A stretch of 32,325 bases of DNA from Promethearchaeia archaeon (GTDB taxonomy: Archaea > Asgardarchaeota > Lokiarchaeia > Sigyniarchaeales > SOKP01). The translations under genes were made by a program, and so were the position numbers. A model generated the notes under the pieces. That model searched no databases, was not told the DNA's origin, and saw only the letters and a list, made by a program, of their open reading frames with translations. Positions 13,296 through 16,860 of this stretch are shown in pieces; the stretch's first letter is position 1; every line of letters begins with the position of its first letter. The stretch is taken from contig JAHQWL010000059.1 in the NCBI GenBank assembly GCA_029856155.1, positions 1-32,325 of the forward strand, in the 5' to 3' direction.

Positions 13296-13547
13296 TTGAA
13301 AAACTGGGTTAAATTAAACTTAATCTATGTTGGACAATCAACTAAGAACCACCACATCTTTAGAGCAAAACAGTGGAATAATAAATTAGAGCAAATTATT
13401 AAGAAGTCGATCTACAATGAGAAATATGTGAAGGTTGCTTATGTTAGAGATGTCTTTGGTCCCATAAAGCTCCCTTTCATCTCAATTAAAGCATTACCGA
13501 ATCAACTATTTAACCCTAATGATAAATTTTTCACTAGGATAACCTAG
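13296..13547 (+). CDS. gar1: H/ACA RNP subunit Gar1
   Basis: VAYVRDVFGPIKLPFISIK; conserved position upstream of tfb. Confidence 0.8.
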   Translation: MKNWVKLNLIYVGQSTKNHHIFRAKQWNNKLEQIIKKSIYNEKYVKVAYVRDVFGPIKLPFISIKALPNQLFNPNDKFFTRIT

Positions 13548-13590: not shown

Positions 13591-14568
13591 GTGTGTCATA
13601 TTTCAAATTGGAAAGAAGTGAGAGCTGAATCAGAAGATTTTTCTCATACAGAAAATGATATATGCACAGAATGCGGGGAAAACATATTTTTTGATGAAAA
13701 TAGAGGATTAGTAGTTTGTGAAGAATGTGGTTTAGTTCAATCCGAAAAACATATTGATCGCGGACCAGAATGGAGGGCTTTCGACGCGGATCAGAAAAAG
13801 AAGAGAACAAGGACAGGAGCACCTATGACTTATATGATACATGATAAAGGACTTAGCACTATGATTGATTGGAAAAATAGAGATATTTTTGGGAAAGAGA
13901 TACCCGCTAAATTGAGGGGGCAAATCTATAGACTTCGCAAATGGCAAAGTCGTATAAGAGTATCTGATGCTACTGAACGAAATCTTACGTTTGCATTAAG
14001 TGAACTCGACCGAATGGCTTCAAATTTGGATCTTCAAAAGAATTTACGAGAATGTTCAGCTAAAATATATCGAGATGCCGTTGAAGCACATTTAATAAGA
14101 GGTAGAAGTATTGAGGGGGTGGCTGCTGCAAGTCTGTATGCCGCTTGTAGAATGTATAAGGTTCCACGCACCTTAAATGAGATAGCTGAAGTAGCGAGAG
14201 TAGATAAGAAAGAAATTGGTCGCTCTTTCAGATTTATATCAAAAGAATTGATATTAAATCTAAATCCAACTAAACCCATAGATTTTCTTACTAGGTTTAT
14301 TTCAGAATTAGAATTGACTCCAAAATGCCAGAAAATGGCAAAAATAATAATTAGGATTGCGGAAGAACGTGGTCTAACCTCTGGGAGAGGTCCAACGGGT
14401 GTTTGTGCAGCAGCAATTTATGCTGCATGTATTTTAACAAATGAACGCAGAACTCAAAGAAAAATAGCTCGTGTTAGTTGTGTAACGGAAGTTACCGTGC
14501 GAAATCGCTTTAGTGAACTTGTAGAGAATCTTAACCTTGGAATATCATTAAAGAAAAGCCATAAATAG
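13591..14568 (+). CDS. tfb: Transcription initiation factor IIB
   Basis: Zn ribbon CTECG..CEECG, GPEWRAF, two cyclin repeats, VTEVTVRNR; true start possibly ATT at 13600. Confidence 0.98.
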
Positions 14569-14729: not shown

Positions 14730-15065
14730 TTGAATAATCTTATTAACGAAAGTGAGGTTAAGTATTTCTTATATAGAATAGAAAAAAACTTTCCAAATTT
14801 TGTTGCTGGAATAATTACAGATAAGCATGGATTTCCTGTGGCATCAAAAATTTCAAAGAAATTATGGATACTTGAAAATACATTAGCCTTATCTGCGATT
14901 GCTAAAAATAGAGAATTCATAGAAGATTCTAAGCTAGTACAAATAAAAAAAGATTTAGATAGGTCAAAAAACTACAAATTATTGATACTACTAGAAAAGT
15001 CAAAAGATTATAAAAGTCGAATGAAGCCATTAAAAAATTTAATTAAAGGTCAGGATCTTTTCTAA
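14730..15065 (+). CDS. Divergent roadblock/LC7-like protein
   Basis: FVAGIITDKHGFPVAS..ENTLALSAIA roadblock pattern; about 110 aa. Confidence 0.6.
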   Translation: MNNLINESEVKYFLYRIEKNFPNFVAGIITDKHGFPVASKISKKLWILENTLALSAIAKNREFIEDSKLVQIKKDLDRSKNYKLLILLEKSKDYKSRMKPLKNLIKGQDLF

Positions 15066-15273
15066 GAATTAAATGTACTGAAAAGAATACAGAATTATTT
15101 TTTATTGTGAACCGTAGAAAAAACACTGAGTTTACTTAAATTTTTATATTTAAAATTTATTCATTAAATAAAGTAGGTGTAAGGTAAAAATATAAAGATA
15201 AGTTTAAATAAGTATTTTTTAACCTTAAAGAAACTGAAATATAAGTTGAAACAAATAATAGGTTGATAAATAT

Positions 15274-15744
15274 TTGAGTTATTCCGAGGATGAGCTTAGA
15301 TTAAAAAAAATTTTAACTTCAATTATCAATAGTGCGCCGGGATTAAAATATGCGCTTCTTACCGATGATACAGGAATAACTATTTTGAGTCAAGCTAAAT
15401 TTAAATTCTCAAGTCACAATGGGATTTCTGTAGAAAAAATTGGCGCTATTGGAGGCGCTGTTTTTGTAGCTGGTGAGGAACAAGGACACATTTTAGGATA
15501 TGGTTCTATTAACCTTCAAATAACTGAATATCTTGAGGGTATGATTTTTTCGATGAAAGTTGGGAAAGGAGTATTATGTATAGTTGCTGATAAAAATGCT
15601 CAAATTGGATTTATTAGAGCCACTATGAAAAAATGGTCTCCACACATATCGTTAATACTAAATAGATATTTAAAAGCTGATCAAGCAGAATTTACTAAAG
15701 AAGTGAAGGAACTCTTTAGATCTGATACTTTTGGTATGCTTTAA
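15274..15744 (+). CDS. Roadblock/LC7 (MglB/LAMTOR-like) protein
   Basis: PGLKYALLTDDTGITI..EKIGAIGGAVF..GVLCIVADKNAQIGFIR. Confidence 0.85.
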   Translation: MSYSEDELRLKKILTSIINSAPGLKYALLTDDTGITILSQAKFKFSSHNGISVEKIGAIGGAVFVAGEEQGHILGYGSINLQITEYLEGMIFSMKVGKGVLCIVADKNAQIGFIRATMKKWSPHISLILNRYLKADQAEFTKEVKELFRSDTFGML

Positions 15745-16365
15745 TTCCTCTAAAAATTATTTCCTTGATAGAATTTTATTTTCAAACCGTTTTCAGAGTC
15801 TTTTATCAGAGGAAACATTATAATAAAACTTTTATTTTCAATACTCTATTATATTACTGGGAAAATGATGATGGAACACTGAGCATTATCGAGGGCTCAT
15901 ACGACTAAAAAATGAATATGGTGCGCAAAAAAATGCTTATATCCTGAATTTAATAATCAGAAAATGCAAAAACTAATACGGGCTCTTTACAGAGCAATGG
16001 TACAAACCACCGCAATGAAAGTAGAGTCAGCAACCCAGATTTGCGACATGATTATGTCCCAACTTTACAAAAGCCTGACATGAGAGAACATCTTAGATTT
16101 AAAGGGAAGGATTCCTTAAAATGAATAAGACTGTGTTAGTGTTTCAGGCGACAAAAAATTTAAGAAAAACAAAATCATTATTACAACACCTCATTATAAA
16201 TTCATCAACTTTTCCTTAAATTTTGTTATACTTTAAAACATAAGCTACATAATAAAAGAACATTTTTTATTAAGTTAATTTTAAATTTGCTAATTTTATG
16301 TTTTAATAGAACTTGGAACAATGGGATATTTTATATAATTAATTAAAATTCTAGTGATTCTATCA

Positions 16366-16860
16366 ATGCACCTAGTTTTAACATATTTTCACCAAATTCA
16401 AGGACCAAACGTGTTAATATCATATCCAGATGAAAAATTAGAGGAACATATCATAAATAAACTCAAAAAGTTTTTTGACTTAGAAATCGATGAAAACTTT
16501 TTTGAAATCATTCTTATAACAAAAAAGAAGAAGATCGTCAATTTTCATTTTGAAGTTCCTTCTGAATGGGCACGCGGCAAAAAAGAATTTGCTATGCTCT
16601 CACTGATAATGAAAATAGATTACAAAAGCGAAGATTTTTATGCATTTATTGTTGACAGCAGCTATAAAATCCTAAAAACAGAGAATGTTTATAAAGCTTT
16701 TTATAAAGGGGATGATTTTCATAATGGCACTGATATAGAAATTGATGTTGCTTATGAACAGATTAGAAAGATACTTTTTAACTGTTTGACAAGTCTAATA
16801 GCTAGAATTGAGGATAAGATTAAAGGTGTAAATAAAAAAGATCCTTTCCCGTTTTCTTAA
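16366..16860 (+). CDS. Longin/uDENN-like protein with ARG motif
   Basis: LVLTYFHQIQGPNVLISYP N-terminus and HFEVPSEWARGKKEFAMLSLIM; ATG at 16366 (the track starts at GTG 16354). Confidence 0.7.
   Translation: MHLVLTYFHQIQGPNVLISYPDEKLEEHIINKLKKFFDLEIDENFFEIILITKKKKIVNFHFEVPSEWARGKKEFAMLSLIMKIDYKSEDFYAFIVDSSYKILKTENVYKAFYKGDDFHNGTDIEIDVAYEQIRKILFNCLTSLIARIEDKIKGVNKKDPFPFS

Follow-up and report, generated by a model that had tools for sequence, protein, structure and literature searches.

A conserved ORF1–ORF2 gene pair, a structured RNA gene and a stand-alone longin gene downstream of tfb in a Loki-type Asgard archaeon

Gene content and layout of the locus

The window analysed here is the whole of contig JAHQWL010000059.1 (C59; 32,325 nt) of the Promethearchaeia archaeon assembly GCA_029856155.1, in which the gene for transcription factor B (tfb) is followed by three co-oriented genes, ORF1, ORF2 and ORF3 (Table 1). 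Coordinates and strands agreed with a preliminary description made from the sequence alone, except that the start of ORF3, listed as the GTG at 16354, was shifted to the ATG at 16366 according to the N-termini of homologues. ORF1–ORF3 are real genes that add new members to known kinds, and their folds had mostly been assigned correctly; their gene context does not support a three-protein module.

Table 1. Features of the tfb–ORF3 region (coordinates refer to the window)
Feature	Position	Strand	Details
gar1	13296-13547		5' of tfb
tfb (transcription factor B)	13591..14568	+	Pfam TFIIB 154 bits, Zn_Ribbon_TF 47.6 bits
ORF1	14730..15065	+	111 aa, TTG start
ORF1-ORF2 spacer	15066..15273	+	208 nt, conserved
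ORF2	15274..15744	+	156 aa, TTG start
Structured RNA gene, unannotated	15858..16153	+	~297 nt
ORF3	16366..16860	+	164 aa, ATG start

The intergenic distances (208 nt between ORF1 and ORF2, and 609 nt between ORF2 and ORF3, or 621 nt up to the ATG) matched the sizes of about 200 and 600 bp given previously, but the larger gap is not empty, since it harbours a structured RNA gene. ORF3 is flanked by this RNA gene on one side and by ABC transporter genes on the other. The order gar1-tfb-ORF1-ORF2 was kept in related loci as far as their contigs extend, and tfb anchors this conserved block; approximately 11 TFB paralogues are present in the genome. As had also been stated, there is no GTPase gene in the window: none of the 86 Arf/Ras-type GTPase matches of the genome was located on this contig.

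The spacer between ORF1 and ORF2 measured 168–227 nt in 34 loci and showed a mean column identity of 85% across 12 species. It contains TATA-like boxes and, 5' of the conserved TTG start of ORF2, the ribosome-binding-like motif AGGTTGA, while no covariation indicative of RNA structure was detected within it. Judging from these sequence features, the spacer is probably the promoter and leader of ORF2 itself.

By sequence, ORF2 is a roadblock/LC7 protein and ORF1 probably a divergent one

Compared with the Pfam family PF08923 (MAPKK1_Int), ORF2 scored 24.3 bits (cut-off 25, E 2.9e-5) over residues 10–125 of the protein and positions 3–112 of the 119 positions of the profile. Its orthologues are 72–96% identical, and many of them are named roadblock/LC7 by their source or carry a precomputed PF08923 assignment. 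In PDB profile searches, matches to Robl_LC7 and MglB chains were obtained at E-values of 0.04–0.1. By sequence, ORF2 belongs to the roadblock/LC7 proteins (LAMTOR3/MP1-like) and is extended by a helix at its C-terminus.

ORF1 encodes a single-copy protein that is confined to one Asgard (Loki-type) order, where it was present, with an adjacent ORF2 orthologue, in 72 of 81 genomes; it was found in none of the 123 genomes that represented 25 further families of this phylum. All its roadblock signals were sub-threshold and fell within residues 4–66. Pfam MAPKK1_Int was matched in 10 out of 25 ORF1 members with a best E-value of 0.033, which is below significance, as was the top PDB profile match (Robl_LC7 7f8f, E 0.64). 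The nearest named clusters in the ESM Atlas were all Robl_LC7/MAPKK1_Int (0.83–0.87). Further, hhalign aligned residues 4–43 of the ORF1 family with residues 4–43 of the ORF2 family (P 0.0026), a weak, N-terminal match that appeared once sequences of a sister family had been joined, an earlier run having given no useful result. After the second helix, ORF1 lacks approximately 20 of the residues that a canonical roadblock fold needs for its three strands (alignment A4), and canonical roadblock proteins are all longer than ORF1. Taken as sequence signals, these data suggest that ORF1 is probably a short, divergent roadblock-like protein. Of the two roadblock-like genes previously proposed, ORF2 was supported by a Pfam score just under the cut-off, orthologue names and PDB profiles; the signals for ORF1 were weak and N-terminal.

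An ORF2 orthologue was located directly 3' of ORF1 in almost all sampled genomes of the family, and both genes form a fixed, co-oriented pair 3' of gar1-tfb across the order. In a sister family, ORF1 is inverted but has kept its place, with tfb on one side and an ORF2-like gene on the other.

ORF3 is a longin with motifs of the GAP-type class

A structural model of ORF3 calculated by AF2 from a diverse alignment of 106 sequences reached a pLDDT of 91.3 and a pTM of 0.85; this alignment was used instead of an orthologue-only one, from which the model was unusable (pLDDT 55). The model follows the longin order beta-beta-alpha-beta-beta-beta-alpha-alpha, with strands at residues 2–9, 13–20, 45–50, 55–65 and 73–83 and helices at 27–36, 89–103 and 124–157. 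In VIA-align comparisons, the best scores corresponded to NPRL2 (Z 13.4, rmsd 2.7 over 132 residues), the longin of a Loki roadblock-longin protein (PDB 8yqg, Z 12.7) and FLCN (Z 12.1), within a range of Z 9–13.4 for the longins of NPRL2, FLCN, Lst4, Sec22b, VAMP7, AP sigma and DENND1. Foldseek E-values ranged from 6e-6 to 5e-4, and the Atlas matches included the clusters NPRL2/NPR2, Avl9 and Folliculin. Profile and single-sequence searches of the PDB retrieved no relative of ORF3, and Pfam searches with ORF3 and its 106 relatives yielded no significant family (Folliculin appeared in 3 of the 106 relatives, with a best E-value of 0.04). On the strength of the model, ORF3 is a longin, as the preliminary description had proposed for the third gene; it consists of the longin domain alone, without a C-terminal DENN-type domain and with no partner longin adjacent.

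Residues G13, P14, R70, G71 and E74 were conserved in at least 90% of the 106 diverse sequences (alignment A2). G13-P14 forms a GP motif at the start of strand 13–20, and R70, within the motif W-A-R-G, is placed in the beta4-beta5 loop of the model. According to PMC12290439, a GP motif and a loop arginine are specific features that GAP longins share with a single class of longins from Asgard archaea. When ORF3 model residues 1–149 were aligned on residues 8–144 of NPRL2, R70 fell near NPRL2 residue 77–78, a position given by aligned ranges only and not at residue level. The residue on which R70 would superpose is presumably Arg78 of NPRL2. Both the motifs and the nearest structures support the assignment of ORF3, as predicted from sequence and model, to the GAP-type longin class (FLCN/NPRL2/SMCR8).

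Relatives of ORF3 are fused to, or encoded close to, small GTPases

In distant relatives of 320–350 aa, an ORF3-type domain precedes an Arf-family GTPase at the N-terminus. Within the same genome, one ORF3 paralogue is a 1130-aa longin-Arf-PAS-kinase fusion, another abuts an Arf/Roc-type GTPase gene, and for another the distance to a GTPase gene of the Gtr1/RagA type is 1.8 kb; the nearest gene of this type found was on contig C75. One distant relative carries a TBP domain. No recognisable roadblock domain was detected by Pfam in the ORF3 relatives with N-terminal extensions, and P0288, one such relative, matched no PDB entry. The earlier suggestion that the domain classes encoded here fit GTPase regulation was supported.

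A structured RNA gene lies between ORF2 and ORF3

A TATA-like box is located approximately 25 nt upstream of the RNA gene, which comprises three hairpins. In each hairpin, the lower stem shows covariation and is separated by an internal loop from an upper stem where GA-rich, K-turn-like motifs occur, and an ANA box directly adjoins the 3' side of the stem. Full-length nhmmer matches were obtained in all 54 distinct related loci with ORF2, and BLAST retrieved the RNA from 53 of the 61 genomes of the family, also in genera devoid of ORF3. The three-hairpin structure paired in 83.8% of cells, as compared to 35–46% in slid controls, and 26 pairs were changed on both sides vs. 11–14 in those controls. 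In all 46 sequences, hairpin 1 as well as hairpin 2 was followed by ANA; after hairpin 3, nearly all had N-ACA or AAA. In metatranscriptomes, contigs of 178–267 nt from four runs mapped to 15873–16139; the same four runs contained no RNA contig over ORF1, ORF2 or ORF3, which says nothing about the expression of these genes. Hence, 15858–16153 holds a conserved, covarying and apparently expressed RNA gene that is missed by current RNA family libraries, with no Rfam family retrieved at either gathering or E-value thresholds.

RNase P RNA was ruled out as the identity of the 297-nt RNA, the RNase P RNA of this genome being encoded on contig C47. SRP RNA was ruled out as well, as relatives carry their SRP RNA elsewhere; a search of the source genome with RF01857 (SRP RNA) found none.

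With its three hairpins, internal loops, K-turn-like motifs and ANA boxes, the RNA resembles archaeal multi-hairpin H/ACA guide sRNAs, and gar1 is located only two genes away. It differs from them in its length of ~297 nt, compared with three-hairpin examples of ~200 nt, in a 5' leader pairing beyond hairpin 2 and in the lack of an Rfam match. The sequence architecture is H/ACA-like and defines a candidate class only. No H/ACA target above chance was found in 23S rRNA, in the partial 16S rRNA or in the complete 16S rRNA of a relative: the best candidate, hairpin 3 on 23S position 1006 (4+6 base pairs), was present in four RNA variants, and shuffled rRNA gave 1.5 such hits on average.

Presence and arrangement of ORF3 vary among related genomes

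At a threshold of at least 200 bits, ORF3 orthologues were detected in 24 of the 61 sampled family genomes. They were absent from all 26 genomes of genus g4, many of which are at least 98% complete, and from the four genomes of genus g3. Genomes without ORF3 display the order tfb-ORF1-ORF2-RNA-ABC gene. Where ORF3 was present, it lay within ~2 kb of ORF2, save for three short or rearranged contigs.

Among 55 loci, the arrangement ORF2> <RNA <ORF3 predominated (35), followed by ORF2> ORF3> RNA> (11), ORF2> RNA> <ORF3 (6) and ORF2> RNA> ORF3> (3, with the window among them). In other words, ORF3 was co-oriented with the pair in 14 loci and convergent in 41, and the RNA gene stood between ORF2 and ORF3 in 44 loci, that of the window included, and beyond ORF3 in 11. 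In the direct same-strand arrangement, the ORF2–ORF3 gap was 30–131 nt in the six loci measured out of 11, and co-transcription of both genes is possible in that lineage. Related genomes are collinear all the way between TGT and the ABC genes, and because of this, the adjacency of ORF3 and the pair counts for little.

The conserved adjacency of the trio expected previously was thus largely absent for the longin, as most genomes that keep the pair do so without ORF3 and its orientation varies. Adjacency together with co-orientation was kept for ORF1–ORF2 only, and in the window an RNA gene intervenes before ORF3.

Discussion

Roadblock and longin proteins of Asgard archaea have served as an argument for an origin of GTPase-regulating machinery before eukaryotes, but their partners have rarely been identified. 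In our literature searches, no description of the ORF1–ORF2 pair or of the trio was found.

The best explanation for this stretch, to which we assign a probability of approximately 0.6, is that it comprises three separate units and not one module. The ORF1–ORF2 pair would most likely form a roadblock heterodimer, by analogy with LAMTOR2/3 and MglB, which would dock or regulate one of the ~86 small GTPases of the genome. The ~297-nt structured RNA, with its H/ACA-like layout, would be transcribed independently. ORF3 would be a stand-alone longin of the FLCN/NPRL2/SMCR8 type with a restricted distribution among lineages, most likely working as a dimer that would present Arg70 to an Arf/Rag-like GTPase encoded elsewhere. 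As part of the same reading, ORF3 is probably found beside the pair in some genera by chance, through a local gene order that has been rearranged repeatedly.

The preliminary description had proposed instead a minimal ancestral GTPase-regulating complex, i.e. a roadblock heterodimer platform together with a longin GAP, with the GTPase encoded elsewhere, which would be the ancestral counterpart of Ragulator with FLCN/GATOR1. The domain classes stand, and the folds and motifs of the three proteins fit such a complex. ORF3, where present, is near ORF2 and in 11 loci follows it directly on the same strand; moreover, a solved Lokiarchaeota roadblock-longin fusion (PDB 8yqg) means that a link between both folds is not far-fetched, and Asgard proteins are known in which roadblock and longin domains are placed next to a GTPase domain (PMC10933270). 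However, the idea of a single three-gene module did not hold, and we consider one complex quite unlikely: 37 of the 61 family genomes, including 26 of 26 in one genus, keep the pair without ORF3, which in most loci is convergent with the pair and separated from it by the RNA gene, and the collinearity described above lowers the weight of adjacency. Further, GAP longins in solved eukaryotic complexes touch GTPase domains and are not known to touch roadblock domains. The more specific label of a proto-Ragulator was not upheld either: Ragulator has five subunits, a lipidated LAMTOR1 scaffold and a bound Rag heterodimer, and none of these was identified here, the contig having just two genes of the roadblock type and none for a GTPase. 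A complex prediction for ORF1+ORF2+ORF3, with ORF3 as the partner, scored 0.18 relative to a mark of 0.32 and was weighed neither way. That, in genera with all three genes, the heterodimer and an Arg-finger ORF3 would constitute a minimal Ragulator/GATOR1-like regulator of a single Arf/Rag-like GTPase encoded elsewhere, with the 11 same-strand loci as its operon form, appears very improbable.

Two further explanations concern the pair itself. ORF1–ORF2 might serve its conserved neighbours and not a GTPase: with tfb, its part would be in transcription, and with gar1 and the H/ACA-like RNA, in the biogenesis of RNPs. In line with this, the order gar1-tfb-ORF1-ORF2-RNA is shared throughout the family and its gar1-tfb-ORF1 part throughout the order, where it outlasted the inversion of ORF1; gar1 encodes an H/ACA RNP protein, the RNA has an H/ACA-like layout, and a TBP domain is attached to one distant ORF3 relative. 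Yet each gene apparently has its own promoter-like spacer, the candidate H/ACA RNA has no rRNA target above chance, and collinearity of related genomes explains the conservation equally well. We know of no roadblock protein in transcription initiation or H/ACA RNP assembly, and overall we regard such a role as highly unlikely. Somewhat less remote, though still unlikely, is that ORF1 is an unrelated small, order-specific protein and that ORF2 forms a homodimer, as do MglB and the solved Asgard roadblock proteins (PMC10933270). None of the ORF1 matches reached significance, and its short C-terminal part would agree with this view; against it, four independent weak signals agree on one superfamily and on one N-terminal segment (helix-strand-strand), which is in register with ORF2, and pairing with ORF2 is strict across the order.

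The present analysis offers three small experimental targets: the strictly paired roadblock couple ORF1 and ORF2, the unfused 164-aa longin that bears the GP motif and arginine typical of GAP longins, and the GTPase-fused or GTPase-adjacent ORF3 paralogues of the same genome, including the one close to a Gtr1/RagA-type GTPase. It also illustrates that neighbourhood alone misleads here, the trio being a mosaic that was rearranged several times and the gap concealing an RNA gene. If true, a three-protein regulator would represent a free-standing forerunner, in a prokaryote, of the machinery by which eukaryotes signal nutrients at the lysosome.

With respect to known systems, ORF2 matches the Pfam family of LAMTOR3/MP1 over its full length, and the presence of two adjacent small roadblock-type genes suggests a heterodimer similar to LAMTOR2-LAMTOR3. 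Its likeness to MglB and Robl_LC7 chains is weak, and the mglB gene adjoins mglA, whereas the contig here is without a GTPase gene. ORF3 shares the longin fold with NPRL2 (GATOR1), FLCN and SMCR8 (Z 12–13.4, rmsd 2.5–3.0 over ~132 residues), with the GP motif and, going by aligned ranges, probably the loop arginine in equivalent places, at a sequence identity of 9–14%. In contrast to ORF3, these Rag/Arf GAPs have a C-terminal DENN-type domain and act as heterodimers with NPRL3, FNIP and C9orf72, respectively, in larger lysosomal complexes.

Asgard longins of the FLCN/SMCR8 type with a GP motif and an arginine finger have been reported, with Heimdallarchaeial examples highlighted (Traffic 2025, PMC12290439). 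ORF3 has in common with them the fold, the GP motif on strand 2 and the beta4-beta5 arginine, a likeness drawn from published motifs and not from sequences, and differs in its Loki-type lineage and in being a 164-aa stand-alone protein. Asgard longin-GTPase and roadblock-longin fusion proteins have been described (PMC10933270; PDB 8yqg, 8zla/9m28). An ORF3-type domain forms the N-terminal part of the Arf-like GTPase fusions found here, and the longin of the Loki roadblock-longin protein was among the best structural matches of ORF3, which is itself unfused.

Gene Layout and Conservation of the ORF1–ORF2 Pair

The preliminary description had placed three small co-oriented genes downstream of tfb, two roadblock-like and one longin-like, separated by gaps of about 200 and 600 bp, and had read them as a candidate GTPase-regulating complex. 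All three (ORF1, ORF2 and ORF3) were found on the + strand, and the gap sizes held (208 nt between ORF1 and ORF2, 609 nt between ORF2 and ORF3), except that the larger gap is occupied by a structured RNA gene. The mechanical call of ORF3 starts at GTG 16354, 12 nt upstream of the ATG; since all homologues begin with MHLV, the ATG at 16366 was taken as the start, and nucleotides 16354–16365 are probably leader. Sequences related to the window came only from Promethearchaeota (Asgard) MAGs.

Features of the tfb region and of the ORF3 paralogue loci in the same genome
Feature	Coordinates	Strand	Description
gar1	13296–13547	+	Upstream of tfb
tfb	13591–14568	+	Pfam TFIIB, 154 bits
ORF1	14730–15065	+	111 aa, TTG start
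ORF1–ORF2 spacer	15066–15273	+	208 nt
ORF2	15274–15744	+	156 aa, TTG start
Structured RNA gene	15858–16153	+	~297 nt, in the "600-bp gap"
ORF3	16366–16860	+	164 aa, ATG start
1130-aa ORF3 paralogue	L079 (contig C84) 557–3946	-	Longin, Arf-like GTPase (Pfam Arf, 121.6 bits), PAS domains, histidine-kinase ATPase-like end
419-aa ORF3 paralogue	L080 (contig C75) 2163–3419	-	Top score in the genome with the profile of the 106-sequence ORF3 alignment, 169 bits
Gtr1/RagA-type GTPase	L080 (contig C75) 5232–6185	+	PF04670, 84 bits, full length
552-aa ORF3 paralogue	L081 (contig C98) 2776–4431	-	Longin-PAS-GAF-PAS
Arf/Roc-type GTPase	L081 (contig C98) 1735–2787	+	351 aa, 120-aa N-terminal extension

The order TGT-radical SAM-gar1-tfb-ORF1-ORF2 was kept in 57 species-level loci wherever the contig extends. 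In genome-wide sampling, 72 of the order's 81 genomes carried ORF1 (by family, 59/61 in that of the window, 11/14 in f2 and 1/1 in f28), and the 123 genomes sampled from 25 further families of the phylum yielded no match. In almost every sampled genome of the window's family, an ORF2 orthologue lies directly downstream. The spacer between the two genes measures 168–227 nt among related loci, with 85% identity across species and invariant TATA-like boxes, and no RNA covariation was detected within it. The TTG start of ORF2 and an AGGTTGA-like motif upstream are conserved in 12 aligned species; in the window, the TTG of ORF1 follows an AGGTG motif. In a sister family (loci L067–L075), the ORF1-like gene is flipped relative to tfb but keeps its place between it and a roadblock gene resembling ORF2. 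One genus of that family carries a second ORF2-like paralogue about 1.5 kb further on.

Roadblock Assignment of ORF2 and ORF1

Judged from its sequence, ORF2 appears to be a roadblock protein. It matched Pfam MAPKK1_Int (LAMTOR3/MP1) over the full length with 24.3 bits (cut-off 25), its orthologues (72–96% identity) are in many cases labelled roadblock/LC7 or carry PF08923, and the family profile retrieved Robl_LC7 and MglB chains from the PDB (E 0.04–0.1). The second roadblock-like gene proposed earlier is less firm. Direct matches of ORF1 were orthologues only, all labelled hypothetical, and four weak signals were obtained, all on the N-terminal part: 10 of 25 family members matched MAPKK1_Int (best E 0.033), the top PDB match was a Robl_LC7 protein (E 0.64), hhalign placed residues 4–43 on residues 4–43 of the ORF2 family (P 0.0026), and the nearest named ESM clusters were all Robl_LC7 or MAPKK1_Int (0.83–0.87). 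In the alignment, the C-terminal half appears too short for three strands. ORF1 is plausibly a roadblock-superfamily protein, and ORF1 and ORF2 likely form a roadblock heterodimer.

ORF3 Is a Longin Protein with Features of GTPase-Activating Proteins

The ORF3 family is not recognised by Pfam. Searched against 1.8 billion representatives, a profile yielded 267 relatives, 106 of which were aligned for modelling. The model built from close orthologues only reached a pLDDT of 55, and that from the 106-sequence alignment 91.3 (pTM 0.85), with the element order of longins (strand-strand-helix-strand-strand-strand-helix-helix). Its top Foldseek matches were GATOR1 NPRL2, yeast Npr2, the Lokiarchaeal roadblock-longin 8yqg, FLCN, Lst4, DENND10, DENND1 and SMCR8 (best E values 6e-6 to 1e-3). 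VIA-align gave a Z of 13.4 against NPRL2 (rmsd 2.7 over 132 residues), 12.7 against 8yqg and 12.1 against FLCN, above the 9–11 obtained for SNARE and adaptor longins. The ESM Atlas shape search returned Asgard clusters, followed by clusters labelled NPRL2/NPR2, Avl9 and Folliculin. The longin fold proposed earlier was therefore corroborated.

According to a 2025 paper (PMC12290439), the GAP longins (FLCN, NPRL2, SMCR8 and C9orf72) and one class of Asgard longins are distinguished by the arginine finger and a GP motif preceding strand 2. ORF3 fits this class: G13-P14 and R70 are at least 90% conserved among the 106 sequences, R70 lying in a W-A-R-G motif of the beta4-beta5 loop. Judged from the aligned ranges only, R70 would be the counterpart of the catalytic arginine of NPRL2. 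A likely role of ORF3 is that of a GAP-type regulator acting on an Arf/Rag-like GTPase whose gene lies elsewhere. As the preliminary description had stated, there is no GTPase in the window, which makes up the whole of contig C59: the 86 Arf/Ras-type matches of its genome (4.1 Mb, 97% complete) all lie on other contigs.

ORF3 itself is stand-alone and unfused; its family is tied to GTPases through fusion and adjacency. The GTPase-regulator theme is reasonable. In many distant relatives (320–350 aa), the ORF3-type domain precedes an Arf-family GTPase, an architecture described for Lokiarchaeal proteins by Tran et al. 2024. Among the six paralogues in the window's genome, the 1130-aa protein combines both domains. 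The 419-aa paralogue lies 1.8 kb from the Gtr1/RagA-type GTPase, divergent from a row of HAD hydrolase, CN-hydrolase and GTPase genes, and constitutes a candidate longin-Rag pairing. The 552-aa paralogue gene is convergent with that of the Arf/Roc-type GTPase and slightly overlaps it.

Around 11 TFB paralogues were counted in this genome, several of them, on contigs C84 and C72, in the vicinity of genes for small GTPases or longins, including two within 6 kb of the 1130-aa paralogue; the tfb of the window is the copy adjoining gar1. In one distant relative of ORF3 (P0383, 320 aa), a TBP domain (Pfam TBP, 82.6 bits) comes after the longin-like one; this may represent a genuine fusion or an artefact of gene calling.

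Patchy Distribution of ORF3

Orthologues of ORF3 (at least 200 bits) were present in 24 of 61 sampled family genomes and absent from all 26 genomes of genus g4, all four of genus g3 and those outside the family. Loci without it read tfb-ORF1-ORF2-RNA, some with an ABC ATPase-like gene directly next. Fifty-five loci containing ORF2, the RNA and ORF3 showed four arrangements: ORF2> <RNA <ORF3 (35), ORF2> ORF3> RNA> (11), ORF2> RNA> <ORF3 (6) and ORF2> RNA> ORF3> (3; the window and its two closest relatives), indicating that several small inversions moved ORF3 and the RNA independently.

The proposed three-gene module is not supported. While the pair is fixed, the longin gene is dispensable to it, being absent from most genomes with the pair; it shares the pair's strand in only 14 of 55 loci, and another gene separates it from ORF2 in most loci, the window included. 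Adjacency carries little weight here, as the whole region is collinear among relatives. A ternary complex of the three proteins is improbable, even though ORF2 and ORF3 are tightly spaced on one strand in 11 loci (30–131 nt, measured in six) and a roadblock-longin fusion, 8yqg, has been solved from Lokiarchaea.

A Structured RNA between ORF2 and ORF3

All 54 distinct related loci with ORF2 contain the RNA at full length. By BLAST, 53 of the 61 genomes of the family have it, among them those of genera without ORF3. Its alignment contains invariant blocks, and the lengths of its indels are not divisible by three; a TATA-like box lies about 25 nt upstream. In a three-hairpin model, 83.8% of cells pair (35–46% in slid controls) and 26 pairs change on both sides (11–14 in the controls); the pairing of the lower stem in hairpin 3 is supported by covariation. 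An ANA box comes directly after each hairpin (46/46 sequences for hairpins 1 and 2), and the upper stems, read by eye, are capped by GA-rich K-turn-like motifs. This layout matches that of H/ACA guide RNAs, and gar1 lies two genes away; the H/ACA class is tentative, since no rRNA target scored above chance in the 23S, in partial 16S sequences or in a relative's complete 16S.

Rfam holds no family for this RNA. RNase P RNA was rejected, being encoded on another contig, as was SRP RNA, which relatives carry at other places. Rfam Archaea_SRP found no SRP RNA in the 97%-complete genome of the window; the full-length matches in relatives scored 57–84 bits, below the gathering score of 96.5, which makes the model a poor fit for this lineage.

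Roadblock proteins of Asgards, GAP-type longins and fusions of longins with GTPases have been described before. In the searchable literature, no description was found of the strict ORF1–ORF2 pairing after tfb or of the RNA; both appear undescribed. Metatranscriptome contigs of 178–267 nt from four runs (salt marsh and sediment; four study codes) fell on 15873–16139, three without mismatch and three starting at 15873, which hints at a discrete, abundant RNA.
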